Position numbers and translations under genes: made by a program
Notes under the pieces: model-generated
Database searches by the model: none
What the model was told of the DNA's origin: nothing
What the model saw: the letters and a program-made list of their open reading frames with translations, nothing else
Shown: positions 3,267 through 50,205 of the stretch, piece by piece
Layout: every line of letters starts with the position of its first letter
Numbering within the stretch: position 1 is the stretch's first letter
Assembly (NCBI GenBank): GCA_018830005.1
Contig: JAHJTE010000001.1
Location: forward strand, 385,332 to 449,331
Direction: 5' to 3'
Length of the DNA stretch: 64,000 bases
Source: Candidatus Omnitrophota bacterium
GTDB lineage: Bacteria > Omnitrophota > Gorgyraeia > JAHJTE01

Positions 3267-3973
3267 GAGAAAATAATCGTGGGTTGAAAAATTTAAGAAA
3301 GATTACAATTCAGCGTAATTATTCAAAATATGCTGAAGGCTCTTGTCTTATTGAACTAGGAAATACACGTCTAGTCTGTACTGTAAGTGTTGATAATACT
3401 GTTCCGCCTTTTTTAAGAGATACAGGTACGGGTTGGGTCACAGCCGAATACGGCATGTTACCGCGTTCTTGTAACGTGCGTTTGAGCCGAGATAAAATGT
3501 CGGGCCGGACTTACGAGATTCAGAGGCTCATCGGTAGATCTTTACGAGCTGTCATAGATATGAATAGGCTGGGAGAGAGGACGTTACGCATTGATTGCGA
3601 TGTAATACAGGCTGATGGCGGTACGCGAACCGCAGCCATTAGCGGTGCTTTTGTTGCTTTAGTTGATGCCTTAGATGGCCTGAAAAGACAGGGCGTATTT
3701 CGCAAATTACCAATAAAGGATTATTTAGCAGCAACGAGCGTGGGCAAGATTGGCAGCGATATATTGTTGGATTTAAGCTATGAAGAGGACTCGAAGGCAG
3801 ATGTAGACATGAACGTAGTTATGACCGGAAGTGGTGAATTTGTTGAAGTGCAGGCAACTGGTGAGAATTCATCCTTCAGCCGCAAAGAAATAGATGCCTT
3901 TTTGCAGCTTGCTAAAGAAGGCATTGATGAGATAATCCAGATTCAGAAGAAGACCTTAGCTAATGTTATCTAA
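3260..3973 (+). CDS. rph: ribonuclease PH
   Basis: 237 aa with RNase PH family signatures such as 'CTVSVDN' and 'DCDVIQADGGTRTAAI'. Confidence 0.88.
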   Translation: MLRENNRGLKNLRKITIQRNYSKYAEGSCLIELGNTRLVCTVSVDNTVPPFLRDTGTGWVTAEYGMLPRSCNVRLSRDKMSGRTYEIQRLIGRSLRAVIDMNRLGERTLRIDCDVIQADGGTRTAAISGAFVALVDALDGLKRQGVFRKLPIKDYLAATSVGKIGSDILLDLSYEEDSKADVDMNVVMTGSGEFVEVQATGENSSFSRKEIDAFLQLAKEGIDEIIQIQKKTLANVI

Positions 3974-4583
3974 GTTGGAGTTACTAGTAGCAACGCGCAA
4001 CAGGAAAAAGTTTAGAGAGATAAAGCAATTGCTTAAGCCTAGTCGCTTTAGACTTAGCTCTTTGGCAGATTTTGCGAATCTTCCCAAGGTTAAAGAGACG
4101 GGAAAAAGCTTTAAGGAGAATGCCGAGAAAAAAGCACGTCAGATTTCTCGTTTAACCTCTAGGCTGACATTGGGTGAAGATTCTGGTCTATGCGTTAATG
4201 CCCTGGGTGGGGCTCCCGGGATTTATTCCTCGCGCTTTGCAGGATTACATAAGTCTGACGAAGACAACAATAATAAATTATTAAGAAAACTAGACTGTTT
4301 GCCACTTTCGGAGAGAAAGGCGCACTATGTATGCGCTATTGCCTTAGCCTATAAAGGAAAGATATTGGCAAGCTTCGAAGGTAGGTGTCATGGCCTTATT
4401 GGGTTTAAGAAGAGGGGTTCATCTGGTTTTGGTTATGACCCTGTATTTATAATTCCTCATCGTAATAAGACATTTGCTCAGCTTGGCCTAAAGGTAAAAC
4501 ACACGATGAGTCATCGCAGAAAGGCAATCAGAAAATTAAAAGCATTTTTAAGGAAGGCCGAAGATATCCTTAAAAGGTTTTAA
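3963..4583 (+). CDS. rdgB: non-canonical purine NTP pyrophosphatase (RdgB/Ham1 family)
   Basis: 206 aa with 'ATRNRKK' and 'FGYDPVF' Ham1 motifs. The classic rph-rdgB pair. Confidence 0.85.
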   Translation: MLSKLELLVATRNRKKFREIKQLLKPSRFRLSSLADFANLPKVKETGKSFKENAEKKARQISRLTSRLTLGEDSGLCVNALGGAPGIYSSRFAGLHKSDEDNNNKLLRKLDCLPLSERKAHYVCAIALAYKGKILASFEGRCHGLIGFKKRGSSGFGYDPVFIIPHRNKTFAQLGLKVKHTMSHRRKAIRKLKAFLRKAEDILKRF

Positions 4584-8793: not shown

Positions 8794-8871
8794 GGTGGGT
8801 GTAGCTCAGCTGGATAGAGCACTTGATTGTGGTTCAAGTGGTCGCGGGTTCAAATCCCGTCACCCACCCCA
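8794..8871 (+). tRNA. tRNA-His (anticodon GUG), with G-1 and an encoded CCA
   Basis: G-1 plus acceptor GTGGGTG/CACCCAC, anticodon loop TTGTGGT, T arm GCGGG-TTCAAAT-CCCGT, discriminator C73, then CCA. Confidence 0.9.
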
Positions 8872-9217
8872 GCTTCATAACTCATTGTGAAACAATGAGT
8901 TACATCAATAACCCGACAGACATTGATTACCGGGGCGCTTTATCTCCTAGGGTTTACGATGGTTAGGGCGTTAGAAGTTTGTACCCGTCAGTAAAATACT
9001 CATTTCCACTCTCCGTGTAGTAGGCCTCTCTAAATCAGCGAGAATATCCGCATATTTGGCCAATTCCTCTCTTAGTTTATGTTGGCTAGTTTATGCGATA
9101 TTCGTCGATTTTCTTAAGATTTTATTTTTCAAAATGAGCATAAACTAAACTCGCGGAAAAATAAACAAGAGAGGTTTGCTCAAGTTGTTGTAAATTAGTT
9201 CCAATCTCTTAAGGGGG
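8866..9217 (+). repeat. R1: conserved ~350-bp structured repeat, copy 1, abutting the tRNA-His 3' end
   Basis: About 85-90% identical to copies at 10748-11098 and 13571-13920. It begins with the shared junction 'CCCCAGCTTCATAACTCATTG'. A compensatory hairpin sits near its 5' end and a nested imperfect palindrome (CCTCTCTTAGTTTAT...ATAAACAAGAGAGG) lies inside. Confidence 0.8.
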
Positions 9218-9232
9218 AGCCACTACTTATAG

Positions 9233-9270
9233 CCCCTTGTAACAAAATAAGTTGCAAGGGGTTATTATTT
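9233..9270 (+). terminator. terminator-like hairpin after R1
   Basis: Stem CCCCTTG...CAAGGGG followed by the T-rich 'TTATTATTT'. Confidence 0.4.
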
Positions 9271-9332
9271 GCGTATAATAATATCGATGAAGAAAATATA
9301 GTTTATTTATTTTGAGTAAAGGAGGAAATTTT

Positions 9333-10574
9333 ATGGCGACAGATTTTAAGTCAAAACAATTTGCTGCTGGAAGTTGTTACTCTTATATTTTGAGTTCAAA
9401 TTCACAAGCTTTAATTGTCGACCCGCATATAAGTTTATTAGAGGAATATAAGAAATACTTGGATAAGAATAAACTTAGGCTTAAGTTTGTAGTTGATACG
9501 CATACTCATGCGGACCATTTCTCTTTAGCTGCGATACTAAAAGATAAGTTTAATGCGTCTGTATTGATGCATGAAAAGGCCATATCAGAAGTAGCAGATA
9601 AAAGACTTAAAGATGGCGATGAGGTTGTCCTTGGTCAAAAACATTTTAAAGTCTTGTATGCACCAGGGCATACTGACGATACTATCAGTATTCATGGGGA
9701 AGGTATGGTGTTTACAGCTGATGTGCTTTTGATAGGAAGCGTAGGTAGGACAGATTTCCAAAATGGTTCTCACGAATCTATGTTTGATACTTTACAAAGA
9801 CTAAAGAACCTTCCGAATGAAACAATAGTATTTCCTGCTCATGATTATAACGGAAGAAAGTCTTCTACAATAGTTAAAGAAAAGACAACAAATCCTTTTA
9901 TGAAGGAGAGTAGTAAAGATGCATTTATTCAGAATGCCCGTTCTAAAAAGCTACCCAAACCTTTTAATATTGATAACATTATTCGGGTAAATCAAAAAGG
10001 CCAAGCTAAAACTTTAGAGATAATTGCACCCAAAGTTGCACAGGAGATTATAGCTAAGGACTCAAATGTTAAATTATTAGATGTGCGCTCAGCTTTAGAA
10101 TATAATGAAGTCCATATCAATCACTCTATGAATGTTCCAATAGATATGATTAGTTCTAAAATAAAGGATTTGAGTGAATCTGCTCAGGCATATATAGTTT
10201 TGTGCCACACAGGGAATCGTTCTCCCATGGCAGCGGATATGTTACTGCAGTCAGGTATTCGTTCGGTAAAGGTGATGTCAGGGGGAATGACACGTTGGCA
10301 GAAGGAAAGGCTTCCTGTTGTAAAGGGAGAAGGTGGTATTTCATTAGAGCGGCAAGTCAGAATAATTGCTGGGGTATTGGTATTGTTTGGAATAATAATG
10401 GCTCAGTTTGTGAATAATGCTTTTATTTGGATTGCAGTCTGGGTTTGTTGTGGACTTATTTTTGCTGGATTGACAAACAATTGTCTTATGGGTATGATAC
10501 TGATGAAATTGCCCTATAATAAGAAAATGTATAAAGCTAAATTAGGAGGTGGAACCTGTTCAATTAGTCAGTAG
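9333..10574 (+). CDS. MBL-fold metallo-hydrolase (persulfide dioxygenase-like) fused to a rhodanese domain and a DUF2892/YgaP-like membrane tail
   Basis: 'HTHADH' metallo-beta-lactamase motif. Rhodanese active-site 'CHTGNRS'. Two C-terminal transmembrane helices. Start chosen at the ATG at 9333, preceded by AAGGAGG. Cargo of cassette 1. Confidence 0.7.
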   Translation: MATDFKSKQFAAGSCYSYILSSNSQALIVDPHISLLEEYKKYLDKNKLRLKFVVDTHTHADHFSLAAILKDKFNASVLMHEKAISEVADKRLKDGDEVVLGQKHFKVLYAPGHTDDTISIHGEGMVFTADVLLIGSVGRTDFQNGSHESMFDTLQRLKNLPNETIVFPAHDYNGRKSSTIVKEKTTNPFMKESSKDAFIQNARSKKLPKPFNIDNIIRVNQKGQAKTLEIIAPKVAQEIIAKDSNVKLLDVRSALEYNEVHINHSMNVPIDMISSKIKDLSESAQAYIVLCHTGNRSPMAADMLLQSGIRSVKVMSGGMTRWQKERLPVVKGEGGISLERQVRIIAGVLVLFGIIMAQFVNNAFIWIAVWVCCGLIFAGLTNNCLMGMILMKLPYNKKMYKAKLGGGTCSISQ

Positions 10575-10687
10575 TTTTATAGGCGTGTTAAACCTTCCAT
10601 TTACTTTTTAGCACTAAAGATAGTCGCATTATCTAATAACTTTTCGGTTTCTTCGCTTAAACACCACTCCTTAAACTCCTCCAAAAA

Positions 10688-10747
10688 GTTGCGAATGTCG
10701 TCCAATAGGGGAGAGTTTTTCCTCGCTGAGTATAACTCCCTCAGGTA
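10688..10747 (+). repeat. T element: ~60-bp cassette-tail motif, copy 1
   Basis: 'GTTGCGAATGTCGTCCAATAGGGGAGAGTTTTTCCTCGCTGAGTATAACTCCCTCAGGTACC'. Variants occur at 12418-12451, 13509-13570 and 14853-14980. Confidence 0.75.
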
Positions 10748-11098
10748 CCCCAGCTTCATAACTCATTGCAGCGCAATGATTTACATCAACGCCCCGACGG
10801 ACATCGATCGCCGGGGCGCTTTATCTCCTAGGGTTTACGATGGTTAGGGCGTTAGCAGTTTGTTCTCGTAGGTAAAATAATCATTTCCACTCTCTGTGTA
10901 GTAGGCCTCTCTAAATCAGCCAGAATATCCGCATATTTGCCCAATTCCTCTCTTAGTTTATGGGCGCTAGTTTATGCGATATTCGTCGATTTTCTTAAGA
11001 TTTTATTTTTCAAAATGAGCATAAACTAAACTCGCGGAAAAATAAACAAGAGAGGTTTGCTCAAGTTGTCGTAAATTAGTTCGAATCTCTTAAGGGGA
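10748..11098 (+). repeat. R2: structured repeat, copy 2
   Basis: Aligns base-for-base with R1 and R3. Its 5' hairpin reads CATTGC-AGC-GCAATG. Confidence 0.8.
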
Positions 11099-11112
11099 GA
11101 AAATTCCACTAG

Positions 11113-11150
11113 CCCTCTGCAAATTAAAAACTTGCGGAGGGTTTTTGTTT
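11113..11150 (+). terminator. rho-independent terminator-like hairpin after R2
   Basis: CCCTCTGCAA...TTGCGGAGGG followed by TTTTTGTTT. Confidence 0.5.
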
Positions 11151-11225
11151 GAGGTAGAATATAGCACTATAAAGAGAATTGCAATTAACGAAAGTTAGAT
11201 AAAGAGAACAAATGCGAGGTGTTAT

Positions 11226-11864
11226 ATGTCATCAGAAAAAAACAAGGTAATAAACCCCGTAATTGAAGCCATAAACAAGAGGTTGTCTGTCAGGTCTTAT
11301 GAGCCAAAACCAATTGCGAGAAATGTCATCAGTACGATCATCGAGGCTGGCAATCAGGCACCTTTTATGTCGGAGAAGCATGGGAAGCCTGAAGACCTTA
11401 TTCAGCCTTGGCGGTTTGTTGTTGTGGAAGATTCAGAGTTTAAGCAAAAACTAGTTCAGGCTACCGAACCTATCAGGTCAAGGTTCATCGAAGGCATGAA
11501 GGAGACTGTGCCTGAAATGCACAAGCAGGTAATGAAGTTCTACAAGGAGATAGGCGAACCCAAAGATATGGTTTATTATTCTGCACCTGTCATCCTCTTT
11601 GTCATAGGCCCAGCGGGATCTGATATAAGTTGCGCGCTTGCCTGTGAAAACATCATGATTGCCGCAACCTCTTTTGGTCTGGGAAGCTGTTATGTGGGAT
11701 TCGGCGCAATGGTCACAGACGATGCTGATATCGTAGAAGCCCTTGAGCTAACGGAGGATGAACGAATCTTCGGGCCTATCGTGCTTGGCTATCCAAAAAG
11801 CTATTCCAGTGCACCGGATACTATACGGCCGAATAAAAAAGAACCCAGGATTAAATGGATCTAG
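11226..11864 (+). CDS. nitroreductase-family protein (cassette 2 cargo)
   Basis: 212 aa with an NADH oxidase/nitroreductase-like pattern ('RLSVRSYEPKPI...'). Noticeably higher GC than the flanks. Confidence 0.6.
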   Translation: MSSEKNKVINPVIEAINKRLSVRSYEPKPIARNVISTIIEAGNQAPFMSEKHGKPEDLIQPWRFVVVEDSEFKQKLVQATEPIRSRFIEGMKETVPEMHKQVMKFYKEIGEPKDMVYYSAPVILFVIGPAGSDISCALACENIMIAATSFGLGSCYVGFGAMVTDDADIVEALELTEDERIFGPIVLGYPKSYSSAPDTIRPNKKEPRIKWI

Positions 11865-11960
11865 AAGTCACAGGTATGTTGAAAAAGGGCACAAAAAGGG
11901 AAATGTAGTCATAACCGTGGAACCCGCCCCCAAAGTAAAGGAGCAGTTTAGGAGGGAGAT

Positions 11961-12320
11961 ATGAAGAGATTTATACTCTATTTAGTAAGATGGCAACTAA
12001 GCACTCCTATACTTTGGTTAGTCTTAAGAAATTTAGGTGCAGGATTATGGCAAACTGTAGTAGCTAATTTGATTGGTGGTAGCATATTCTTTTGGGTGGA
12101 TAGATTTATCTTTACTTCTAAAGCCGTAGAGATGTGGCATTTTAAAGAAAGTGGGAGTTGTGATAATTGCGGTAAAGAAACAAGCCTATGGAGATTAGTA
12201 TTGGCTCCCAATTATGATAAGAGAAATTCGGAACCTGTATTCTTTTGTATGGAATGTTCCAAGAAGAGAACGGATGAACTGAGAATCAAAGGAATAAAAA
12301 TTAGAGGTAAGAGTAAATAA
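11961..12320 (+). CDS. hypothetical membrane protein with a C-terminal zinc-ribbon (CxxC...CxxC)
   Basis: 119 aa with two N-terminal transmembrane helices and 'CDNCGKE...CMECSKK'. Confidence 0.45.
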   Translation: MKRFILYLVRWQLSTPILWLVLRNLGAGLWQTVVANLIGGSIFFWVDRFIFTSKAVEMWHFKESGSCDNCGKETSLWRLVLAPNYDKRNSEPVFFCMECSKKRTDELRIKGIKIRGKSK

Positions 12321-12417
12321 ACAATTGTGCCCAACTTGTGCCCCAATGTAAAGGAGCAGCTTAGCCAATAAAAACCAGCTCTTTTGACAGCTTTCCAGCC
12401 TCTTCTGACCGTAAAAA

Positions 12418-12451
12418 GTTGCGAAAGTCGTCCAATAGGGGGAGTTTGACT
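12418..12451 (+). repeat. T element, copy 2, without an R repeat
   Basis: 'GTTGCGAAAGTCGTCCAATAGGGGGAGTTTGAC', followed directly by a terminator hairpin. Confidence 0.6.
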
Positions 12452-12458
12452 TTCCAAA

Positions 12459-12492
12459 CCTCTGTGATACAATGTGTTGCAGAGGTTTTTTG
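12459..12492 (+). terminator. rho-independent terminator
   Basis: CCTCTG-tgatacaatgtgttg-CAGAGG followed by TTTTTTG. Confidence 0.5.
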
Positions 12493-12524
12493 TTGGATAA
12501 ATAAATTATAAAAAGGAAAGAAAT

Positions 12525-13424
12525 GTGAAGCAACACAGAATTTTTAGGTTATCACTTTTAATAATGCTCTTGCTGGGTGGGCTCGGGCTTTCGCCTGTCC
12601 TTGCGCAGATCGATCCTCAGCAGAATGTTGAGACAGTCAAAATAGCGATCTCTACTGACGGCACAGCGATCAATTATTGCGAGCATGGGCAAGAGGATCC
12701 GACACTCGTATTCGTCCACGGATGGAGTTGTGACGCGAGCTACTGGAGAGAACAGGTTGAGTATTTCAAGAAGAAGTATCACATGGTTCTGATTGATCTG
12801 GCTGGGCATGGTCGTTCTGGGAGCGAACGTGAAAACTACACTATGGAAGCTTTTGGTCATGATGTTAAGGCTGTCGTCGAGAGTATCGGAGCAGAGAAGG
12901 TAATCTTGATCGGTCATTCCATGGGTGCCCTTGTAATCGCAAAGGCGGCCCGCTTGATGCCAGAGAAAGCTATTGGATTGGTCGCGGTTGATGACCTTCA
13001 GAACGTGGAGTATCCTCTGGGGGAAGAACAGTTCAGGGAGATGACTGCACCATTCAAAGAAGATTTCAAACAGGGTGTCAGAGATTTCGTTATAGGTATG
13101 TTGCGTTCTGACAACTCGCCGGTCAATGAATGGGTGATCTCTGATATGTCTTTGGCTAATCCCAAGGTTGCGCTCAGTGCAATAAACGAGTCATTAGGCG
13201 AGTATCTGGTAGGTGATGTGGCCAAGTTGTTTGATGAATTGGACATTCCAGTTATAGCTGTGAACGCCGACCTTTGGCCAACAGATGTCGAAGCGAACAG
13301 ACGGCACATAAAGGACTTTGAATTAATCGAGTTGGACGGACTGGATCATTTTCTGATGCTTAAAGCACCTGAGCGTTTCAACCCAGCGCTTGAGCAAGCT
13401 ATTAAAATGATACTTAAGAAATAA
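12525..13424 (+). CDS. secreted alpha/beta-hydrolase (cassette 3 cargo)
   Basis: Signal peptide. 'HGWSCDASYW' and 'GHSMG' nucleophile elbow. 299 aa. GC clearly higher than the genomic background. Confidence 0.7.
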   Translation: MKQHRIFRLSLLIMLLLGGLGLSPVLAQIDPQQNVETVKIAISTDGTAINYCEHGQEDPTLVFVHGWSCDASYWREQVEYFKKKYHMVLIDLAGHGRSGSERENYTMEAFGHDVKAVVESIGAEKVILIGHSMGALVIAKAARLMPEKAIGLVAVDDLQNVEYPLGEEQFREMTAPFKEDFKQGVRDFVIGMLRSDNSPVNEWVISDMSLANPKVALSAINESLGEYLVGDVAKLFDELDIPVIAVNADLWPTDVEANRRHIKDFELIELDGLDHFLMLKAPERFNPALEQAIKMILKK

Positions 13425-13508
13425 ATGAAGATGGTAGTATTAGGTTTTGAGATGTAAAATCATCTCCTCTTCGTCCGTAATGCACCAGCCCCTAAACTCA
13501 TCCAAAAA

Positions 13509-13570
13509 GTTGCGAATGTCGTCCAATAGGGGAGAGTTTTTCCTCGCTGAGTATAACTCCCTTCAGGTAC
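13509..13570 (+). repeat. T element, copy 3
   Basis: Nearly identical to T copy 1. Confidence 0.75.
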
Positions 13571-13920
13571 CCCAGCTTCATAACTCATTGTAGCACAATG
13601 ATTTACATTAACGCACCGGCGGATATCGATCGCCGGGGCGCTTTATCTCCTAGGGTTTGCGACAGTTAGGGCATTGCTTATTCCTTATCATTGCCGCAGT
13701 TATCTTTTTTACTCTCTGCTTACTAGGCCTCTCTAAATCAGCCAGAATATCCGCATATTTGGCCAATTCCTCTCTTAGTTTATGGACGCTAGTTTATGCT
13801 ATATTCGTTGATATAATAGAGTTTTTATCTTTAAAAATAAGCCATAAACTAAACGCGAGGGAAAATAAACAAGAGAGGCTTGCTCAAGTTGCCGTAAATT
13901 AGTTCGAATCTCTTAGGGGG
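13571..13920 (+). repeat. R3: structured repeat, copy 3
   Basis: Aligns with R1 and R2. Its 5' hairpin reads CATTGT-AGC-ACAATG. Confidence 0.8.
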
Positions 13921-13997
13921 AGTTGCTATCCTAACTCACAGTGATATAATATATTGCAGTGGGTTTTTGTTTTAGTTGAATATCAAAAGGAGAAGAG

Positions 13998-14780
13998 ATG
14001 AAGAGGAGAATATTTATTGATACTGTTATTGCGCTTCTTATTATTGTTTTTGTTGGATTTGCGTGTTTTCTAACAGAGCCTTTAGTTTCAGGTGCTGCAT
14101 TAAATGAAGAATGGAGTGTTTACCGCGATGCTTCAAATCGTTTTGAGTTTTCATATCCTGTAAGTTTCGGCATTCCGAGAAAGGACATAAGGACAGATAT
14201 GCCTGATGGTGATTCAGGGGAGATGATTTTATTTCCTGAATTCTCTCATGGATTGTGTAATGGTAAGATTATATTAGGCGGCGACCTCGAACTTAGATCT
14301 GGCAGGGTATGGGTAGGCATGCAGGCCTTAGGTGGATTATATGACCCTATAGCAGTTGGTGGATTTATAGATATGTTTCCTATTGCTATTCAAGAGAGAT
14401 TGCGTAGCCAAGCAGAAAATCTTACAATTTCAAACTTTTGTAGCGAATTATCGAAATCAAAACATATCTCAATCGATGACTCTGTTTTAAATAATGTTAC
14501 CCCTGAACAGAAACAAGTAATAATTGGATTGGACTCTCACGGAAACCTAAATCCTAAGGTAATTACTTGTAACGTATTGGGCGATACGATTATTTTTCAT
14601 AAAGAAGCCGTGTTTGAGTCTGGACTGGTCAGTAGTCTTCGGCAGATATATGGGGTAATCCGCTTCCTAAAAGGCCCTTTTAGTTCTGTGCAATTTATCC
14701 GGATTACACGCGACCCCCCAGATGAGGAATTGCTTGAGACAATGGCGAAGATAGTTCAGTCTTTCAAAGTGTTACATTGA
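13998..14780 (+). CDS. hypothetical membrane-anchored/secreted protein (cassette 4 cargo)
   Basis: 260 aa with an N-terminal transmembrane segment. No recognisable motifs. Confidence 0.45.
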   Translation: MKRRIFIDTVIALLIIVFVGFACFLTEPLVSGAALNEEWSVYRDASNRFEFSYPVSFGIPRKDIRTDMPDGDSGEMILFPEFSHGLCNGKIILGGDLELRSGRVWVGMQALGGLYDPIAVGGFIDMFPIAIQERLRSQAENLTISNFCSELSKSKHISIDDSVLNNVTPEQKQVIIGLDSHGNLNPKVITCNVLGDTIIFHKEAVFESGLVSSLRQIYGVIRFLKGPFSSVQFIRITRDPPDEELLETMAKIVQSFKVLH

Positions 14781-14852: not shown

Positions 14853-14980
14853 GTTGCGAAAATCGTCCAATAGGGGGAATCCTATTTGAGATAATCAAAT
14901 TAGCTCTTTTTGACGGTATAAGGCCTAAACCAAGCAGAGAGTTTTCCCTCGCTGAGTATAACTCCCTTCAGGTACCCCAG
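14853..14980 (+). repeat. T element, copy 4, a long variant with a ~60-bp insertion, ending 'GGTACCCCAG'
   Basis: Both halves of the T motif are present, separated by unique sequence. It is not followed by an R repeat; the array ends here. Confidence 0.6.
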
Positions 14981-15279
14981 TAATTTCATTCTCTTAGCAT
15001 AATGGGAGAGTTTCAAGGCTATTGATCGGATACGGTCAATAGCCTTTTCTATCTGGCGCTGTGTCAAAGAGTTAGGGCATTATATTTATTGGCACTATAT
15101 CGAATTTTTCCGCACCATAAGCTGTTTATAAAGCCTCTCTGGATCAAGCCATTTTATTGCAAAAATAGGCATAATCCTCTCTTATATAATGCGTTCTATA
15201 TAATGAAAATATCGGCAATATTCGAGGGGTTTTCGAGCTTCACGAGGCCATTATATACGGGGAGAGAGGTTTTCTATCG

Positions 15280-16890
15280 TTACGCGGTAGGGTTTTTTAG
15301 CAGCTTCTGCCACATTTCGTTTTGTTTTTCCCAATTTAACTCTCGGCAGATTTTGTTGATCTTGTATTCGGGGATTAATGAGATGTTCTTATTGTCGGAA
15401 AGAAGGATTTCTTCTTGAATGTTTGGCGCAAGCATTAGCGCGTTCATGATTAAGTAGATTTTAACATCGCCTAAGTTAAGCCACTCAGCCATTTGTTTTA
15501 AGTCTTTCACTCGGTCGCTAGCGATTACGTCTTGTATTTGATGCGCTAAGATTAACCTTTGTCGTAGCAGTGGTTCGTTCTTAATATTTATCTGATTAGG
15601 AGGAACCGGCAGGTTTTTGAGTTCCTTGAGTTCTACCTTATATTGACGTTTCTTATTGTCTTTTAGCAAAACGATTTCAAGTATGCCTTTGTTACCATCG
15701 AAACTCGCCTCTTTAAGGACTGTTTTTATAATCGCAATTTTATCCTGCAAGCTAAAGGTATCCCATACTTTCTCGTCGAGCTTCGGCAGAGGAGTCAAGG
15801 TTTTGAGCAATTCGATGATTTTCTGTTCAATCTTCTGCGCGCTCAGTAAGCGGGTAGGACAGGTTTTGTAGCCGCGCTTACTGGCACTCATACAAAGGTA
15901 GTAGTGATACTTGTATTTGTTGGCTTTGATATTGTAGGAGAAGTACATCGCGCAGTTGCAAGCTTTACAGCGTAGGAGTCCGGTAAGCAACCCTACATGT
16001 TTAGTCTTTTTGGTCATTTTCCAGTCAGGCCTGTTTTCTGCAAGTATGCTTTGTGCTTTCTGGAAGGTTTCTTTCGAAATAATCGCTTCATGTTCTCCCG
16101 GATATAACTCGGCCTGGTATGAAACCTTGCCGGCGTAAAGCACATTTCTTAAGATTAGCTGAATACCGTTGCTTGTAAACTGAATCCCACCGAATTTTCT
16201 GCCTTTTTCAGATGTATGCTGTTTAGTTGTGTATCCAAGGTCATTCATAGATATCGTTACTGACAAAAGTGAGCGCTTCTCAATATATAGGTTAAAGATT
16301 TTGCGTATAAGCTTGGCTTCCTTCGGGTTAATTACGAGCTTATGTTTTTTCTTATCGATGCTATAGCCTAAAGATGGTCTTCCTCCGATCCATTTGCCTT
16401 TTCTCTTAGCAGCGCCCATCTTGTCGCGGGTTCTTTCGCTGATTATTTCGCGTTCAAACTGCGCAAAAGAGAGGAGGATATTAAGCGTAAGCCTGCCCAT
16501 CGAGTTTTGCGTATTAAAGTGCTGTGTTACTGATACGAAAGTGGCACCATGTTTTTCAAATACAGACAGGAGCTCTGCAAAATCAAGAAGTGAGCGTGAT
16601 AGGCGATCAACCTTATAGACTACTACGCAATTAATTTTATTGGCTTTGATGTCAGTAAGAAGCCTTTGAAGTGCAGGTCTGTCTGTATTGGCACCGGTGA
16701 ATCCACCGTCATCGTAGTATTCTGGCGAAGCTACCCAGCCTTCGTTTTTCTGGCTGGCAATGTAGCTTTCACAGGACTCGCGCTGGGCATCCAAGGTAGT
16801 AAAGTCACGCTCAAGTCCATCGCTGACCGATTTGCGCGTATAAATAGCGCAATTAATAATCTGTTTCTCTTTAGGTTCTATGGTTTTCAT
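15280..16890 (-). CDS. large serine recombinase (resolvase catalytic domain, recombinase domain, zinc beta-ribbon)
   Basis: 'IYTRKSVSD' catalytic Ser region, 'VDRLSRS' and 'FEREIISERT' resolvase motifs. The C-terminal Cys cluster 'CKACNC...YYLCMSASKRGYKTCP' matches the zinc ribbon of large serine integrases. 536 aa. Confidence 0.85.
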   Translation of the reverse strand: MKTIEPKEKQIINCAIYTRKSVSDGLERDFTTLDAQRESCESYIASQKNEGWVASPEYYDDGGFTGANTDRPALQRLLTDIKANKINCVVVYKVDRLSRSLLDFAELLSVFEKHGATFVSVTQHFNTQNSMGRLTLNILLSFAQFEREIISERTRDKMGAAKRKGKWIGGRPSLGYSIDKKKHKLVINPKEAKLIRKIFNLYIEKRSLLSVTISMNDLGYTTKQHTSEKGRKFGGIQFTSNGIQLILRNVLYAGKVSYQAELYPGEHEAIISKETFQKAQSILAENRPDWKMTKKTKHVGLLTGLLRCKACNCAMYFSYNIKANKYKYHYYLCMSASKRGYKTCPTRLLSAQKIEQKIIELLKTLTPLPKLDEKVWDTFSLQDKIAIIKTVLKEASFDGNKGILEIVLLKDNKKRQYKVELKELKNLPVPPNQINIKNEPLLRQRLILAHQIQDVIASDRVKDLKQMAEWLNLGDVKIYLIMNALMLAPNIQEEILLSDNKNISLIPEYKINKICRELNWEKQNEMWQKLLKNPTA

Positions 16891-17363
16891 AAATTAAAAA
16901 AATTATAGCCGTTCCAATGCACTCCGGTTATTTCTTCAGCTATGGTGGTAAGATGCTTATATATCTTCCCGTTATATTCAAAGCCATTATCAAGCACCTT
17001 GACCTGGATATTTTTGCCTTTATATTTCTTGATGATAACACTTCCTGGAATAGGAAGGCGTCGGTCTCTTCCAAGGCTTTTCTTTCTTGCCTGCGTTTCA
17101 AGGCTTATCTTCGGTCTAATCGACTTATTATTAACAGGATCATAAAGTTTTATAAGTTCTCTAAGCCTATTTTCCGCTTTTTGCGATAAGCTGCCATATT
17201 TAAGCTCCTGCAGGCCGTAGGCAATCCTTCTTATTAGGTAGATTTTATTGTCCGAAGTCGCCTTTTGGCCATTAAATAGCTCTTCGTATTTCTTTTGGAG
17301 CTTAGGAATGGTCTTCTTTTTGAGATCCGCAATTTTGGTTTCTAACGTCTCTTTCATTGGCAC
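16887..17363 (-). CDS. DUF2924-like protein, the usual partner of large serine recombinases
   Basis: 158 aa. Start overlaps the recombinase stop. The 'KIYLIRRIAYGLQE' pattern resembles the DUF2924 family (from memory). Confidence 0.5.
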   Translation of the reverse strand: MPMKETLETKIADLKKKTIPKLQKKYEELFNGQKATSDNKIYLIRRIAYGLQELKYGSLSQKAENRLRELIKLYDPVNNKSIRPKISLETQARKKSLGRDRRLPIPGSVIIKKYKGKNIQVKVLDNGFEYNGKIYKHLTTIAEEITGVHWNGYNFFNL

Positions 17364-17504: not shown

Positions 17505-17675
17505 GTGGAAACTCTCACCGTAGAAGAACTAGCTAAATATCTAAAACTCCACCAATATACAATCCGCCGCCTTGCACGAACTGGAAAAATTCCATCTTTT
17601 AAAGCTGGAGGACAGTGGAGGTTTCGTAAGGATGAAATCTATAAATGGTCTATTTCAAATAGGGAGCATAAATGA
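17505..17675 (+). CDS. excisionase-family helix-turn-helix DNA-binding protein (Xis/AlpA-like)
   Basis: 56 aa, GTG start after GGAG. 'LTVEELAKYLKLHQYTIRRLARTGKIPSFKAGGQWRFRKDEI' matches the excisionase-type HTH. Its stop overlaps the next gene's start (ATGA). Confidence 0.6.
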   Translation: METLTVEELAKYLKLHQYTIRRLARTGKIPSFKAGGQWRFRKDEIYKWSISNREHK

Positions 17676-20600
17676 GCACTCAATTTATCACAAATCAGGA
17701 TAGGCTTCTTTCAGATGTCGTAAATAATATCTTGCCTTCCTCAAAAAATCTATATTTTTTAATTGGATATTTCTATTTCTCTGGCTTTGAAGAAGTCTAC
17801 AAGAATGTCAAAGACAAAGAAATCAAGATATTAGTAGGTTTAGAGATAGAGCATGACATTACCAATAAAATCAGAGAATTTGAAATCATTCAAGAAGTGA
17901 ATACTTCAGGCGGTAAAATAAAAGATAGTTATTTTAAGTCTTTAGTTAAGCTATTTAATGATACAGATTTTTTCGATTCACATGTAAAACAAGAAGCCTT
18001 TAAGATATTTTTAGATAAAATTAAGGACGGCTCGTTAGAGATTAGAAAGACTCGTCAGCCTAATCACGCCAAGCTCTACATATTTGAAAATCAAGAGAAG
18101 TTTAGTCAAGGTGGAGATTATCCTGGTACAGTTATTACTGGATCTAGCAACTTTACTAGGTCTGGTTTCAAGGGGCGGTTTGAGATAAATGTTGTTTCAA
18201 GAGATGCTCGTAATTTCAGTGAAGCTTATAAGATTTTTCAAGATTTGTGGAAAAATTCTGTAGTGATAGTTGATAAAGAAAATATTGAAGATTTTTTCAG
18301 CAATGTAATAGATAATATTTGGTTAGATAGAATTCCTAGACCATTTTTAGTTTACGTGCGTGTATTAGAAGAATATTTTCTCGAATATAATAGGGATTTT
18401 GTAAGGTTGCCCGCTGAGATTACAAGGGGTAGATACATTAATCTCAAATATCAAATTGATGCAATAAAGCGCGCTTTGGATGTGCTGAAGAGGCACAACG
18501 GCGTAATTATTGCTGACGTAGTAGGCTTAGGCAAGAGTATTATTGCTTCTGCGGCTGCTCACAATCTGAATCTAAAAAGTATTGTTATTGTCCCTCCTCA
18601 CCTAAAAGCCCAATGGGATGACTATCGTTATGATTTTGAATTTAATGCCAAGGTTTACAGCTCTGGTAAAATAGAGCAAGCGTTAAAAGAAAATATTCAA
18701 GAGGAGGAGCAGCTCGTCATTGTTGATGAGGCCCATAAATATAGAAACGAATTAACTAGGGATTACGCAAGTTTACATAAATTATGTCAGCGTAATAAAG
18801 TAATGCTTCTATCAGCTACCCCGTTTAACAATCGGCCTCAGGACGTATTTTCAATGGTTAAATTATTTCAAATACCCACGAGATCGACTATTCAGACTGT
18901 AGATAATCTTTCGTTCCAATTTAAAAAACTTGTTTCGGAATTCCAAAAGATTAAACAAGATCAGCAAGGCAAAAAAGTAAGCAACAAGGTGATCGCCTCT
19001 CGCGTAAAAGAGGTAGCTAATGGGATCAGGGACATATTGTCGCCTTTGGTGATTAGACGGTCCAGATTAGATTTAGACGCCATAGAAGAATATAAAGAAG
19101 ATTTAAAGCGTCAAAAGATTCAATTTCCTAAAGTTAATCCACCTGAGATTCTTGATTATGAATTAGAGGATCTAAGTGATATTTATATAGATACTCTTGA
19201 TACTATATGCCCTGAAGATGAAAATGCAGGATTTATTGGAGCTAGGTACAAGCCGACCAGTTATATTAAGGATTTTGATAAATATAAGGATAGAATCGCA
19301 AAAGAAATGGGAGTTGATGAGAATTTATTACGTCAAACTCAAGTAAACTTAGCGAAGTTTATGAAGCGTTTATTGGTCCGTAGATTCGAGAGTTCAGTAT
19401 ATGCATTTCAGAAGACCCTTGATTCATTAATTCGTAATTCGGAACTTATGCGCGATTGGTATGATAAATTAGGTAAGATTCCAATATACAAAAAGGGTAA
19501 TCTACCAGATGTAGATATACTTCAGGAATCTGTCGGAGAAGATTTAGATGAAGAGTTAAGAGAAGCCACGCTTGAAGAGGAGTTAAAAGAACATATAGAA
19601 AAAGGCCTGTGGCTCATAGATAAAAAGGAGCTTAGAAAACAATTTATAGAGGATATTAATAGTGATATTAAGATGCTTAAAGAAGTTAGGGAGGAATGGT
19701 TTGAAGAAGGATTTCCGAAAGACCCTAAGCTCGAACACCTAAAAGAAATTTTACTAGAAAAGTTGAAATCAGAACCTGATAGAAAAATAGTTATTTTTAC
19801 TGAGTTTGCGGATACAGCTGGACATTTATACAAAAACCTTAAAGAAACTCTAAGGGTTTTTAAGTATTCTGCTCAAGACGCAAGTGAGAAAAACAAAAGG
19901 ATAATTAAAGAAAATTTTGATGCCGGCTACCGAGTTCAGGTAAATGATTATGATGTATTGATTGCTACTGATGCAATTTCAGAAGGGTTTAATCTGCACA
20001 GGGCAGGAATTGTTTTTAACTACGATATTCCTTATAATCCAACTAGGGTTATTCAAAGAGTAGGCCGCATAAATCGTATTAATAAAAAGGTATTTGATGA
20101 GCTGTTTATCTATAACTACTTTCCTACTGTAACTGGAGAGGAAGCAACAAGGATAAAACAAGTTTCTACTTTAAAGATCGCAATGGTACATGCACTTTTT
20201 GGAGAGGATACTAAAATACTTACTAAAGATGAGGAACTTCAAAGATACTTTGCTGATAAATTTGAGGAAACTTTAAGGAATGAAGAAGAGCTTTCACCAG
20301 AAGCTAAACATGAGAATTTCATCAAGAAATTACGTATTTCTGAACCACGCGTGATTGAAGAGGCTTTAAATTTACCACGGCGTTCTCGTGTTAAAAGAAC
20401 GGTTAAAAAGGATAAAAAAGGTGTAATTATCTTTGGCAAGAAAGGTGAAGAGCATGCTTTTAAATATGGAAATAAACAAGTTGAGTCAGTTTCTTTAAGT
20501 ATTCCTCAGGCTTTGGAATTATTCAAAGCAAAGGCTGAAGAGAAAGGCGAGAAAACTGGTAAATCTTTCGATGAAATTTATGAAAATGTTAGAATAAAAC

Positions 20601-20914
20601 TATTTTCTAAAAGAACTGAAGTCGCTAAAGATAGAGGAAAAAGAGATACTATTGATAAAGTGAATGTTTTGAAAAACAAGCTTCCTAAGGTAAAAGATTA
20701 TTTAGAAGATTTGTTGTATGTTGTGAATGATTTGGATGCTTTGCCGGATAGATATGAGAAATTAATAAGGGCAGTTGATTCAAAAAGCTTAGAGGAAGAT
20801 TTTAAGATTTTACAGAAAGAAGTGCCTCATAAATATCTTATCCAAATTATTGATAGAGAGCAGCGTATTGAAGAAGGCAAAGAGACCTTAATTTTATCAG
20901 AGGAATTAATTTAA
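17672..20914 (+). CDS. PLD-family nuclease domain fused to an SNF2-family (DEAH) helicase
   Basis: N-terminal HKD motif 'NHAKLYIF...GSSNFTRSG'. Helicase motif I 'DVVGLGKSIIA', motif II 'VIVDEAHKYRN', motif VI 'QRVGRINRI'. 1080 aa. Confidence 0.8.
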   Translation: MSTQFITNQDRLLSDVVNNILPSSKNLYFLIGYFYFSGFEEVYKNVKDKEIKILVGLEIEHDITNKIREFEIIQEVNTSGGKIKDSYFKSLVKLFNDTDFFDSHVKQEAFKIFLDKIKDGSLEIRKTRQPNHAKLYIFENQEKFSQGGDYPGTVITGSSNFTRSGFKGRFEINVVSRDARNFSEAYKIFQDLWKNSVVIVDKENIEDFFSNVIDNIWLDRIPRPFLVYVRVLEEYFLEYNRDFVRLPAEITRGRYINLKYQIDAIKRALDVLKRHNGVIIADVVGLGKSIIASAAAHNLNLKSIVIVPPHLKAQWDDYRYDFEFNAKVYSSGKIEQALKENIQEEEQLVIVDEAHKYRNELTRDYASLHKLCQRNKVMLLSATPFNNRPQDVFSMVKLFQIPTRSTIQTVDNLSFQFKKLVSEFQKIKQDQQGKKVSNKVIASRVKEVANGIRDILSPLVIRRSRLDLDAIEEYKEDLKRQKIQFPKVNPPEILDYELEDLSDIYIDTLDTICPEDENAGFIGARYKPTSYIKDFDKYKDRIAKEMGVDENLLRQTQVNLAKFMKRLLVRRFESSVYAFQKTLDSLIRNSELMRDWYDKLGKIPIYKKGNLPDVDILQESVGEDLDEELREATLEEELKEHIEKGLWLIDKKELRKQFIEDINSDIKMLKEVREEWFEEGFPKDPKLEHLKEILLEKLKSEPDRKIVIFTEFADTAGHLYKNLKETLRVFKYSAQDASEKNKRIIKENFDAGYRVQVNDYDVLIATDAISEGFNLHRAGIVFNYDIPYNPTRVIQRVGRINRINKKVFDELFIYNYFPTVTGEEATRIKQVSTLKIAMVHALFGEDTKILTKDEELQRYFADKFEETLRNEEELSPEAKHENFIKKLRISEPRVIEEALNLPRRSRVKRTVKKDKKGVIIFGKKGEEHAFKYGNKQVESVSLSIPQALELFKAKAEEKGEKTGKSFDEIYENVRIKLFSKRTEVAKDRGKRDTIDKVNVLKNKLPKVKDYLEDLLYVVNDLDALPDRYEKLIRAVDSKSLEEDFKILQKEVPHKYLIQIIDREQRIEEGKETLILSEELI

Positions 20915-20918
20915 TTTT

Positions 20919-23900
20919 ATGGATTTTAAAGTTACTTATGAACGAGAGAAATATCTAGATTTTTTCCAAAATCAATTCCTGCCTGAAGATTTTGAAAGTT
21001 GCGATGAGAGTATCGAATCTCAATTTAAACCCCAGCATATAAGCAAAGTCACCAAGATTGGTCAAGTTCCATCCCTCGATTTAAATATATACGAAATTAA
21101 GCATCATTCTGAGAATGATCCTCGCGTTTCACTTTCAAGAGATTCCTTTCGCATACTGGCACAATACGGGGTAAGAAGAGCACTAGCAATCTTTACGTCT
21201 TCAAGTTCATCTAATTATCGTTTATCTCTTATTACTATTGATTTAAAATTGGAAGGTAGGCGAGTTCAAAAGGAATATTCTAATCCCCGCCGATACTCTT
21301 TCTTTTTAGGTCCTGATACAAAAACACACACTCCAGAAGAGTATCTTATGAAACAGGGTCGAATAAAAAATTTTGAAGATTTAAAGAACCGTTTCTCAAT
21401 CGAGGTAGTAAATAAAGATTTCTACATGAAAATCGCGATTCTTTTTACTCAACTGGCTGGCGGTAAGCGCAAAATTGGACGTAAATCAATTGACGCTGGT
21501 AGAGGCCTATTGGACTTGCCTGGAACTAGTGATGATACTTTAGACAAAGAGTTTACTGTGAGGCTTATTGGTAGACTTGTTTTTTGCTGGTTTTTAAAGA
21601 GAAAACAGTCAGATAGGAATATTTCCCTTTTACCCGAAGAACTTCTTTCAGTAAATGCAGTTTTGAAAAATAAAGGCTATTACCATGGTATCCTGGAACC
21701 TTTATTTTTTGAAGTGCTTAATACTCCGGCAAAAGATCGCGATAAGAAATATCAAGAATCGACATGGTCACAAATTCCCTTCTTAAACGGTGGTCTTTTT
21801 ACACCGCATCATCATGATTTTTATGATCCGGGGCTTCTAGGGATTTCAAAGTATATAAACGTCCTCAAAATTCCTGACCATTGGATAAAAGAGTTATTTG
21901 ATGTTTTTGAAACTTATAACTTTACTATAGACGAAAATACTTCTGTTGATGTGGAGCTTTCCATTGAACCTGAAATGCTCGGACGTATCTTTGAAAATTT
22001 GCTTGCAGAGATTAATCCGGAAACCGGTGAGACAGCACGTAAGGCAACCGGCAGTTATTATACTCCACGACCCATTGTTGAATATATGGTGAGCGAGAGT
22101 TTAAAACAGTATCTTTTAACTAAGACAAAGCTTGAAGAAAATAAAATCACGCGTTTGCTTACCTATGAGGACGTTGAATTGAAGCTTACCAGCTCAGAGA
22201 AAGAATCTATCCTTAATGCTCTTGATGTTATTAAAATCATTGATCCTGCTTGCGGTAGTGGCGCTTTTCCAATGGGGATATTACAGAAGATGCTTGTTAT
22301 TCTCCAAAAGATTGATCCAGAATCTGAATGGTGGCTCGATAAAATGCTTTCGCGTATCGGCAACAAAACTTTAGAGAGAAAATTAAAAGTAGAAAATGTT
22401 AGCTATATTCATAAGTTAGGCATAATTCAAAACGCTATTTTTGGTGTAGATATCCAACCGATAGCTGTAGAGATTTCGAAGTTGAGGTTTTTCTTGTCGC
22501 TTATTGTAGACGAAACAGTAAATGATTCAAAGAAAAACCGTGGCATAGAGCCATTGCCTAATCTTGAGTTTAAATTTGTTTGCACTAATAGCTTGATAGG
22601 GCTTCCTAAAAAAGGTACCCAGCAGACACTTTTCGAAGCTGATGAAGATATTAAATCATTAAGGGATCTTAGAGACGGATATTTAAGAAGCTATGGCAGC
22701 GAGAAGAGGAAAGTAGAGAAAAGATTCCTTGAGCTACAAAGAAAAATGGCAAAGCATGCTTTAGGTTGGGCTCTTTTTGGGGGGGAAAAATCACAGACAA
22801 TGAAGCTATCACAGTGGAATCCATTCTCAGAAGAACCTTGCTCATGGTTTGATCCAGATTGGATGTTTGGGATAAAGGATGGATTTGATATTGTGATTGC
22901 CAATCCCCCATACATTAAAGAGTATGTTAACAGAAATGCATTCAAGGGATTTAGAAGCTCGCTTTATTATCAAGGCAAAATGGATATTTGGTATATGTTT
23001 GTTTGTAAGAGTTTAGACATAACAAGAGACGGCACAGGTTTAGTTACTTTTATCGCACAAAATAATTGGGTCACTAGTTATGGCGCCTCAAAGATGAGGA
23101 ATAAAGTTATAAAAGATGCTCAAATTTTGAACTTGATTGATTTTGGTGCTTTTAAGATATTCGAGTCTGGCATACAAACTATGGTTATGGTGTTTAGGAA
23201 AAATACTGATTTGGATAGTTACTCATTTGATTACAGGCGACTTCTTGGGAATGATCTTGAATTCGATGATGCTATTTTTCTTATTAATAAGGAAGATAAT
23301 CCTAAGTCAGAATACTTAACTCCTACGATTACAAGGATCAATTTTATAGATAAAACATTAACATTCAGCAGTTCTGATATTGAACCGATACTTGAAAAAT
23401 TATCATTAAAAGCAAATTTTCGATTTAACGATAAGGAAGTTGCAAACGGCATACACCATCATCACGATCGCGTGAATAAAAACCGCGAGGAAATTTTAGG
23501 TGGTCAATATAAGGTTGGGGATGGAATTTTCGTTCTAAGCAACGAAGAAAAGGAGCGAATTTCATTCACAAAAAAAGAGTTAGGCTTAATAAAGCCTTCC
23601 TATACCACAAAAGAATTGCTACGATGGTATGGAAATTCTACAAATAAAGAATGGGTTATCTACACGGATTCGAGTTTTAAAAATAAGAAACAAATTGAGA
23701 ATTATTTGAATATTAAAAGACATCTTGATCGTTTTAGGAAAGTTATTACTTCAGACAATAAGCCCTACGGTCTTCATAGAGCTCGAGATGAATATTTTTT
23801 TAGAGGAGAGAAAATTATAGCTGCAAGGAAATGTGCAAGGCCGACTTTCACCTATGTCGATTTTGATAGTTATGTTTCTGCAACATTTTATGTGATCAAA

Positions 23901-26631: not shown

Positions 26632-26727
26632 TAGTGAGTCCGGGGAAATTCCGGTGACACATACCTAATTTATTTAAGCCTGGTCGCGATTATATAGCCG
26701 GCAGATAAGTGAGGAGATATTAAATAA

Positions 26728-47828: not shown

Positions 47829-47846
47829 ACCTACCCCCCTGATAAG

Positions 47847-50117: not shown

Positions 50118-50205
50118 GCCCTTTCTTTTCTCGCTCAACAAGCTTTTATTTAGCGGGATCCCGCTCTGCGGGAAAAGGATTAGGAAGGCCTATCTTTGTA
50201 GGATT
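50118..50205 (+). repeat. intergenic palindrome element, copy 2
   Basis: Near-identical to 47847-47935. Lies immediately upstream of the second DnaJ-zinc-finger gene. Confidence 0.7.

Follow-up and report, generated by a model that had tools for sequence, protein, structure and literature searches.

A repeated arm behind tRNA-His in an Omnitrophota genome, probably the attachment-site arm of large serine recombinase elements

In integrons, attC is an imperfect palindrome of about 55-140 bp with the form RYYYAAC ... GTTRRRY, and IntI lies with attI and Pc beside the array. Sites of ~50 bp suffice for classical large serine recombinases (LSRs), which do not recombine attL with attP; the attP of an LSR is expected to show imperfect dyad symmetry, reaching about 25 bp to either side of the central dinucleotide. 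It is normally ~50 bp long, and to our knowledge no arm sites have been described for these enzymes. The CcrAB/CcrC LSRs of SCCmec insert at the 3′ end of rlmH (PMC11470126, PMC6222049), and the tycheposons of Prochlorococcus integrate at tRNA genes, where newcomers displace older elements and where a minority use LSRs (bioRxiv 10.1101/2020.12.28.424599). The locus described here lies in a stretch of 64,000 nt from Candidatus Omnitrophota bacterium (assembly GCA_018830005.1, contig JAHJTE010000001.1, positions 385,332-449,331), which we call the window, and it is built around a repeat of ~350 bp, R, that follows a tRNA-His gene. The marks of SCC- and tycheposon-like accretion are found at this locus: insertion is site-specific and at the 3′ end of a gene, the units are bounded by core repeats, and some of them have no recombinase.

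R is probably the tRNA-proximal attachment-site arm (P′ side) of LSR elements, and of recombinase-less cassettes derived from them, that stack at tRNA-His. Copies of R start at a recombination junction, ACCCCAG. A gene with Resolvase, Recombinase and Zn ribbon domains adjoins the arm, and homology breaks off at the common core, as at an LSR attachment site. Short repeated sequences inside R (iterons) co-vary with a helix-turn-helix (HTH) domain at the C-terminus of the LSR. The hairpins and palindromes for which R was initially singled out as a possible structured non-coding RNA (ncRNA) are present, and they are accommodated below within an arm of DNA.

The ACCCCAG junction and the array behind tRNA-His

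A gapped pattern was made from the blocks common to the four copies in the window, R1 to R4, with none expected by chance in the window. It retrieved 49 copies of R in 43 loci, 32 of them metagenome stretches and 11 genome stretches; nine of the 11 genome records are Candidatus Omnitrophota metagenome-assembled genomes (MAGs) and two are labelled uncultured Planctomycetales. Searches of phage and plasmid collections (blastn) and of viral contigs (19-mer scan) gave no match to R. Copies with an intact left end begin directly after ACCCCA(G/A), the exception being locus L024, where unrelated sequence adjoins R. Of the 41 distinct listed junctions, 15 have the 3′ end of tRNA-His on their left; elsewhere that place is taken by one of several kinds of L end, the name used here for the right end of a unit. 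In the window, R1 joins the tRNA, whose CCA end falls within the ACCCCAG core (8866-8872), while R2, R3 and R4 join L ends, and the junction is always ACCCCAG.

Homology breaks off sharply at this ACCCCAG, which is common to the tRNA-His end and to at least five kinds of L end. To its right, the first 100 nt of R occur in two unrelated versions, type A (R1-R3) and type B (R4), and because arms of both types follow the same left partners, ACCCCAG is a recombination junction and goes beyond a mere common motif. R4 has only the short blocks GTTAGGGC, GCCTCTCT and CCTCTCTTA in common with R1-R3, but keeps them at the same spacing, 113 versus 114 nt.

The array reads tRNA / R-cargo-L / R-cargo-L / R-cargo-L / R4-LSR element, that is, three recombinase-less units followed by the LSR element, and neighbouring copies of R are separated by between one and three cargo genes, which all lie on the + strand. 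Its features are as follows, in window coordinates.

8795-8871, + strand: tRNA-His (GTG), the integration target (ARAGORN, Rfam)
8873-9216, + strand: R1, type A arm
8962-8969 and 9024-9031, + strand: conserved blocks of R1, GTTAGGGC and GCCTCTCT
9176-9216, + strand: conserved tail of R1
9229-9279, + strand: terminator-like hairpin and T-run overlapping a sigma-70-like promoter, TTGCAA-16-TATAAT, which would serve the first cargo gene
9312-10574, + strand: cargo gene, metallo-beta-lactamase fold and rhodanese
10631-10753, + strand: L end of unit 1 (L motif 10688-10711; degenerate copy of the tRNA-His T-arm/acceptor; ACCCCAG core 10747-10753)
10754-11097, + strand: R2, type A arm
11111-11160, + strand: hairpin and T-run overlapping TTGCGG-17-TAGAAT, upstream of the nitroreductase gene
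11226-11864, + strand: nitroreductase gene
11961-12320, + strand: open reading frame (ORF) of 119 aa, after the nitroreductase gene
12403-12498, + strand: L motif (12418-12441) fused straight to a terminator/promoter module, TTGACT-16-TACAAT, without core or R
12525-13424, + strand: alpha/beta hydrolase gene, downstream of the 12403-12498 module
13452-13575, + strand: L end of unit 2 (L motif 13509-13532; ACCCCAG core 13569-13575)
13576-13920, + strand: R3, type A arm
13923-13975, + strand: hairpin and T-run overlapping TTGCTA-16-TATAAT, upstream of the 260-aa ORF
13998-14780, + strand: ORF of 260 aa
14838-14980, + strand: L end of unit 3 (L motif 14853-14876; ACCCCAG core 14974-14980)
14981-15269, + strand: R4, type B arm of the recombinase-carrying element
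15071 and 15133, + strand: conserved blocks of R4
15280-16890, - strand: LSR, 536 aa, with Resolvase, Recombinase and Zn_ribbon_recom domains
16887-17363, - strand: DUF2924 protein, conserved upstream partner of the LSR

The LSR gene, with DUF2924 upstream, converges on a type B R in at least 12 loci, and its stop codon lies 97-102 nt past the first iteron block. Locus L033 has, on the minus strand at 3734-4096, a type A R with a decayed LSR 3′ end behind it (...LDWQK*NEM*QKLLKDPTA*). This decayed tail, together with the pairing of LSR and type B R, makes the recombinase-less units look like derivatives of LSR elements. No integrase-family ORF was found between tRNA-His and the LSR, and no tyrosine integrase beside the array. 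The content of the interval from tRNA-His to the LSR varies by locus, from nothing in L005 to two genes in L008 and arsenic-resistance and other genes in L030, with L014 differing as well; no relatives of the window's cargo genes were found in other R loci.

Beyond LSR and DUF2924, at 17672-27668, the cargo of the LSR element is a defence island with genes for a PLD-nuclease/SNF2-helicase fusion (1080 aa), an Eco57I-like methyltransferase (1106 aa) and an AAA_13 protein (802 aa), together with a PD-(D/E)XK protein and a small nuclease-like ORF. A search for the right end of the element found no L-like end and no second core between 17 and 35 kb.

Conserved L sequence of ~120 nt, ending in ACCCCAG, stands to the left of R2 and R3, and L also precedes R4. 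Near the right end of each unit lies the L motif, a conserved 24-mer (GTTGCGAAnnTCGTCCAATAGGGG) that also occurs in L033 (547-568). On the minus strand the motif reads PLLDD(I/F)RN(F/W), followed by diverged tails and without a usable start codon. Coding by this 'PLLDDFRNF' stretch was considered and rejected, as it has no usable start; protein coding elsewhere in R or L was likewise rejected, given stops in the six frames, a shift of frame between copies and a spacing that is 1 nt different in types A and B. The segment 12403-12498 looks like a deletion between GGGGGAG at the end of the L motif and GGGGGAG at the end of R.

L ends also copy the last ~25 nt of a tRNA-His (window 10721-10753, 13542-13575 and 14947-14980; loci L008, L006, L028, L029 and L033). 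Their acceptor arm, CAGGTACCCCA, is different from that of the resident tRNA-His, CACCCACCCCA, and the copies suggest either cassettes from hosts with another tRNA-His allele or a target mimic of the element's own. The subtype termed Lc finishes in a hairpin made of the CCCTC/GAGGG motif, with a conserved stem and a variable loop; where Lc meets a type B arm, the junction has an imperfect dyad symmetry of 14-16 out of 30 positions, always centred at +1 from ACCCCAG.

Iterons and the C-terminal domain of the recombinase

The palindromes of ~110 bp pointed out in the initial annotation are present in all three of its copies (9066-9174 in R1, 10947-11055 in R2 and 13769-13878 in R3). Each is best read not as a stem but as a series of 9-bp iterons, of which two are direct and one or two are inverted. 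The layout is CCTCTCT-TA[7-mer]-nnnGC-TA[7-mer], followed by an AT-rich spacer that contains ATATCGnCnATATT, by an inverted copy at +66/67 and by AGAGAGG; R1-R3 have two inverted copies of the 9-mer. Distances are constant: 14 nt separate the two direct copies, and the inverted copy comes at 66-67 nt.

9066-9174: iteron palindrome of R1, TAGTTTATG twice, then CATAAACTA and ATAAACAAG inverted
15176-15269: iteron palindrome of R4, TATATAATG twice, then CATTATATA and AGAGAGG
15283-15570, - strand: LSR codons 441-536, ParB-like HTH domain, whose type tracks the iteron type

Three types of 7-mer occur, T1 (TATAATG), T2 (TTTAATG) and T3 (GTTTATG). The direct copies are identical to each other in 38 of 43 distinct arms, and the inverted copy is of the same type as the direct ones in 26 of the 33 arms that have one. 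Base pairing offers no explanation for direct repeats that change together, whereas repeated sites for one protein do explain them. The 9-mers were also considered as -10 boxes; this was rejected, since a -35 box is not consistently present and the TAnnnT pattern is missing from T2 and T3.

The type of iteron is matched by the type of the recombinase's C-terminus. In an alignment of eleven LSRs that adjoin arms of known iteron type, residues 1-440 (catalytic, recombinase, zinc-ribbon and coiled-coil parts) are as identical between iteron groups as within them, whereas identity across residues 441-536 is 0.44-0.66 between groups and about 0.8 within. The between-group minimum falls on an HTH-like stretch that reads WLNLGDVKIYLIMN with T1, WLNLSHVRICQITG with T2 and WLNLNHQRLNQMMN with T3, in which the helix GDVKIYLIMN goes with TATAATG, SHVRICQITG with TTTAATG and NHQRLNQMMN with GTTTATG. 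Two further loci with the KIYLIMN helix, for which T1 was predicted, do carry T1 (TATATAATG). A distant LSR, P0049 (helix SPARVSQLMSLN), has a like arm layout with different iterons, GTTTAAnCG; here the order is tRNA-like end, TCTCTC/GAGAGA hairpin, GC hairpin and T-run, iterons, LSR stop. Iteron and HTH types thus co-vary; that the HTH would bind the iterons, and that R would take part in recombination, we infer from sequence.

A profile search with the domain across 1.84 billion representatives gave 682 relatives at E <= 0.001, and a word-indexed protein search for it returned six fragments only. Eleven of 40 relatives match Pfam HTH_ParB (PF17762; best 7.5e-6) and six of 40 match Sigma70_r4, and the family profile aligns to the parS-binding HTH of ParB (PDB 4umk, E = 0.007). 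Many relatives of the domain are stand-alone proteins of ~125 aa (P0007-P0156). A distant relative in loci L053 and L054 (4636-5700) has two DUF2924-LSR pairs in tandem, and in L054 an IS200-type Y1 transposase gene sits inside the R-like arm.

Another repeat is often found at the iteron end of R. In the window it forms two tandem 78-nt units (...CTCTCAAATTTnCCAATAGCTGTnnACnGAGAGGnCnTCCCCTTGTG...ATATTACTGCCC) at 34823-34978, in the intergenic spacer after a SurE-like gene; elsewhere the unit follows many R copies or cuts them right after the second iteron (loci L002, L004, L011, L013, L015, L016, L022, L024, L025, L030, L032, L039 and L042). It has the motifs CCAATAG and CAGAGAGG..TTCCCCT in common with L ends and looks like a dispersed Omnitrophota repeat element. 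Two other pairs of repeats in the window are unrelated to R: an 82-nt repeat with an internal GC hairpin (47842-47923 and 50113-50194; 93% identical, 2271 nt apart), and the pair 55970-56136 and 56753-56919, with two repeats of 46-47 nt that lie 783 nt apart.

Hairpins and transcription signals in R

The three copies initially recognised, R1, R2 and R3, are confirmed at ~345 nt each, with an identity of 75-88% across 300 nt and of 93-95% across the final 80 nt; R4, a second hairpin with T-run within each R, and the conserved L sequences were not part of that description. The hairpin at the 5′ end of each copy (hairpin 1) is likewise present, at 8878-8902 in R1, 10759-10783 in R2 and 13581-13605 in R3, with folding energies of -10.9, -6.9 and -5.2 kcal/mol and z-scores of -5.3, -3.7 and -3.5, respectively. 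It had been argued that this hairpin is preserved by compensatory base changes. One double change does stand, but the evidence is thinner than was claimed and broken pairs outnumber it. R1 also pairs as CATTGT-GAA-ACAATG, so that R1 and R3 have the loop-closing T-A pair in common; the C-G pair in this position occurs only in R2, which leaves a single double change among the three copies, and the outer C-G pair is lost in R2 and R3 (GAG to GAT).

A covariance analysis over more copies, proposed as a check, did not strengthen the case. Across nine type A copies, the window's three and six from public assemblies, six pairs of the 11-pair stem are invariant, one pair has a double change (in one sequence) and three pairs are only broken, with eight broken cells; about 26 of 500 shuffles do as well on the whole-structure measures. 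The added copies come close to the uncompensated variation that the initial annotation had itself named as refuting its idea. Hairpin 1 is real, but conservation is stronger in its sequence than in its pairing. Its type A and type B versions have unrelated sequences, yet both are inverted repeats at about +8 to +35, and the 6-pair stem of type B hardly varies among 32 copies, with L038 having the one double change.

14989-15010, + strand: hairpin 1 of R4 (TTCTCT...GGGAGAG)
10790-10826, + strand: hairpin 2 and T-run of R2
13612-13648, + strand: hairpin 2 and T-run of R3
15015-15056, + strand: hairpin 2 and T-run of R4

The genuine covariation in R lies in a different hairpin from the one first named, namely hairpin 2. 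Among 32 type B copies its 13-pair stem is 97% paired and nine pairs have double changes; 500 shuffles produced no case that reached even one of the measures, and slid controls are 38-47% paired. G.U pairs are frequent on the + strand only, where the other strand would have A.C mismatches, and TTTTTATCT follows directly after the stem. With its GC-rich stem and U-run, the type B hairpin 2 has the make-up of an intrinsic terminator in the tRNA sense and is to be read as one. The type A version is weaker, with a conserved A.C mismatch followed by CTTTATCT; in R1-R3, too, hairpin 2 would be an intrinsic terminator.

The remainder of R gives no sign of a conserved RNA structure. For the body from GTTAGGGC to CCTCTCTTA, RNAalifold finds no consensus fold on either strand (-2 to -5 kcal/mol, covariation 0 to 0.1), and over the element it gives -2.8 kcal/mol on 31 copies. 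A check against Rfam, at gathering and at relaxed thresholds, found only tRNAs: the window's two at the gathering thresholds of Rfam 15, and relaxed matches all far below threshold. With neither an Rfam match nor a consensus fold of the body, the view that compensatory changes in the 5′ hairpin mark R as an ncRNA is largely not upheld.

A further hairpin with T-run stands shortly after each R, as reported (-22.6 kcal/mol for R1, -18.2 for R2 and -11.2 for R3). These hairpins and T-runs overlap sigma-70-like boxes, and a like module at 12446-12498 joins an L motif directly; each is a candidate terminator fused to a cargo promoter. Transcription may also cross the junction itself. A subtype of L end has TTGnnn-16/17-TATAAT in a constant place, facing the junction from ~85 to 56 nt to its left (loci L012, L015, L016, L021, L025, L030, L035 and L039), ahead of a minihelix that resembles an acceptor/T-arm and finishes in CCA (GGTTTCCCCTCG-loop-CGAGAGGGACCCCA, -15 kcal/mol). 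This promoter, the minihelix, hairpin 1 and the hairpin 2 terminator would together give a predicted RNA of ~125 nt across the junction. The window's own L ends are without that promoter.

A proposed mechanism, its rivals and known systems

The favoured explanation can be put as a sequence of events. LSR elements and cassettes would insert right behind the CCA of tRNA-His and accumulate into an array, with the R-cargo-L cassettes mobilised in trans and stacked beside the tRNA. The first ~35 bp of R, with the 5′ inverted repeat, would be the site of the LSR P′ half-site, of which hairpin 1 would form part, and the LSR would bind the core by its usual domains. Hairpin 2 would stop transcription entering from the tRNA gene or from the preceding unit, while the post-R terminator and the cargo promoter would insulate each cassette transcriptionally. 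The ParB-like C-terminal HTH would bind the iterons and tether the LSR to its cognate arms; such tethering would define the cassettes on which a given LSR can act, and it may set specificity or direction.

Several observations weigh against this explanation. As classical LSRs do not recombine attL with attP, growth of the array, with tRNA-core-R as the target, is left unexplained. R1-R3 carry T3 iterons and the resident LSR is of the T1 type; the T3 arms may be stranded, or may have been brought by another recombinase. Iterons and C-terminal domain share one contiguous divergence block of ~400 bp, so that simple linkage after block exchange could give the co-variation, and the independent lineages are few (about 12 for T1, three to four for T2, one for T3 and one distant). 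The C-terminal domain of the window's LSR has no match in Pfam or PDB sequence searches, and a low-confidence AlphaFold model of the domain (seven sequences; pLDDT 64) has none in Foldseek; the HTH assignment is owed to the relatives and the profile. No arm adjoins the stop codon of two distant LSRs that share the domain, and hence the domain does not always come with this arrangement. The dyad symmetry at Lc/type B junctions is modest, and type A junctions have none, at 9-13 of 30 positions versus a shuffled type B baseline of about 10.9. Hairpin 2 of R1 has decayed (about 8911-8945, z = -0.3) and is the weakest, although it stands beside a real tRNA. The window's cargo genes, sought in other contexts, were found in the same array only, with no circle junction or empty site.

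The alternatives to an LSR arm are best weighed against the same evidence. The iteron palindrome could be a replication or transfer origin, or a partition site, of the excised circle, served by a protein in trans and unrelated to recombination. Direct and inverted iterons around an AT-rich spacer of ~45 bp with a conserved ATATCGnCnATATT are indeed origin- or centromere-like, and the co-varying domain resembles the HTH of ParB. Yet that domain, the one which tracks the iterons, is fused to the recombinase itself, the distance from palindrome to crossover is fixed, and the loci examined hold no Rep, relaxase or ParA gene with the LSR-DUF2924 pair, so that this idea must be called unlikely. We think it slightly less likely still that R is a structured ncRNA of ~350-400 nt that ends at the terminator-like hairpin, its hairpins and palindrome being selected RNA helices. 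R1 does fold better than its shuffles (z = -5.5 on the + strand, -2.8 on the - strand), a hairpin and T-run follow each R, and the covariation of hairpin 2, with its G.U pairs on the + strand, indicates transcription into RNA of the first ~80 nt at least. But a good fold score is expected of any DNA palindrome, direct iterons that co-vary are inexplicable by pairing, there is no Rfam match, and RNAalifold finds no covariation in the R body on either strand. Moreover, hairpin 2 and its T-run would stop + strand transcripts about 75 nt into R, ahead of the body, and no consistent promoter lies upstream of the body.

If R had no function, it could be a leftover of tandem integration, for example a lost recombinase 3′ flank, that looks conserved only through youth; one type A copy does keep the tail of a recombinase pseudogene, hairpin 2 of R1 has decayed, and several copies are cut by another repeat element. 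Youth fits poorly with types A and B having diverged past recognition in their first 100 nt while GTTAGGGC, GCCTCTCT and CCTCTCTTA keep a spacing of 113-114 nt, with copies from many MAGs and habitats, with the covariation of hairpin 2, and with iteron types common to otherwise different arms; this reading is very unlikely. Least likely of all is a site of the attC or CTX type, in which one DNA strand folded into hairpins is the recombination substrate. The initial annotation had compared R to attC, and in part this holds, for R bounds cassette-like units and starts at a recombination junction; the enzyme, however, is an LSR and no integron integrase. A folded strand would account for hairpins formed at an equal distance from the junction by the non-homologous types A and B, for the L-end subtype that ends in a hairpin of conserved stem and variable loop, and for integron-like single co-oriented gene cassettes. 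Against it, the only recombinase conserved beside R is of the serine type, known to act on duplex DNA; hairpin 1 has eight broken cells to one double change in type A and one double change in 32 copies in type B; and R is 3-6 times the length of attC, with no R''/R' core pair found.

The arm reading may extend further, to an LSR counterpart of the integron in which an exchangeable ParB-like HTH reads iterons ~200-290 bp from the crossover, an extension put forward tentatively. Equally speculative is its corollary, in which the iteron 'address' picks promoter-equipped cassettes and the L-end promoter of one subfamily may make the ~125-nt junction RNA. If true, this counterpart of the integron would be the first arm-site-dependent serine integrase; a literature search for LSR arm sites, or for a long iteron arm matched to an extra LSR domain, found none. 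LSRs are prized for genome engineering because of their short sites and freedom from accessory DNA, and a swappable DNA-binding module with matching arm sites would, if real, be a new control of LSR specificity or directionality. It would also mean that integron-like stacking of single-gene, self-promoted cassettes arose with a serine recombinase in the little-studied, uncultivated Omnitrophota. For annotation there is a caution, in that well-folding hairpins and palindromes at cassette boundaries need not be RNA genes.

Among known systems, the integron resembles this one in its co-oriented, mostly single-gene units, with a structured repeat between them, that are stacked by a recombinase gene. 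The R system is nevertheless not an integron: there is no IntI, and R fails the features of attC. The neighbouring enzyme is a serine recombinase with DUF2924, R is ~350 bp long with three separate inverted repeats, and L, core and R together measure about 470-500 bp with several of them; GTTAGGGC resembles GTTRRRY but has no inverted partner. Each cassette here has its own terminator and promoter, insertion takes place at a tRNA, and the recombinase stands at the array's distal end. In the proposed use of distant repeats read by a separate domain or subunit, R would be like the arm-type sites of the lambda family and the accessory sites of Tn3/gamma-delta res. There is a likeness to ParB-parS as well, in that the family profile of the LSR C-terminal HTH aligns with the parS-binding HTH, and inverted copies are among the sites presumed for this HTH. 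The system is nonetheless not one of the ParB kind, since there is no N-terminal ParB/Srx domain and no ParA in the loci examined, and the sites are direct and inverted 9-mers in place of a 16-bp palindrome.

Taken as a whole, the system has its nearest parallels in SCCmec-type composite islands and in the tycheposon-like accretion seen at tRNA genes. As in SCCmec, an LSR inserts at the 3′ end of a conserved gene, tandem recombinase-less units are bounded by core repeats, and defence and accessory cargo travels alongside (PMC11470126, PMC6222049). Unlike SCCmec, the target here is the CCA of tRNA-His, a single LSR with DUF2924 takes the place of Ccr pairs, and the hosts are Omnitrophota; the ends, too, are different, with a 350-bp arm that has a terminator and an iteron palindrome and with an L end of 120-170 bp, and the enzyme has a ParB-like C-terminal HTH. 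With tycheposons the locus has in common the tRNA target and successive integrations that leave partial tRNA copies and degenerate remnants (bioRxiv 10.1101/2020.12.28.424599). Tycheposons mostly have tyrosine recombinases and replication modules, whereas the array behind tRNA-His is made of cassettes of one to three genes with long non-coding ends and no replication genes.

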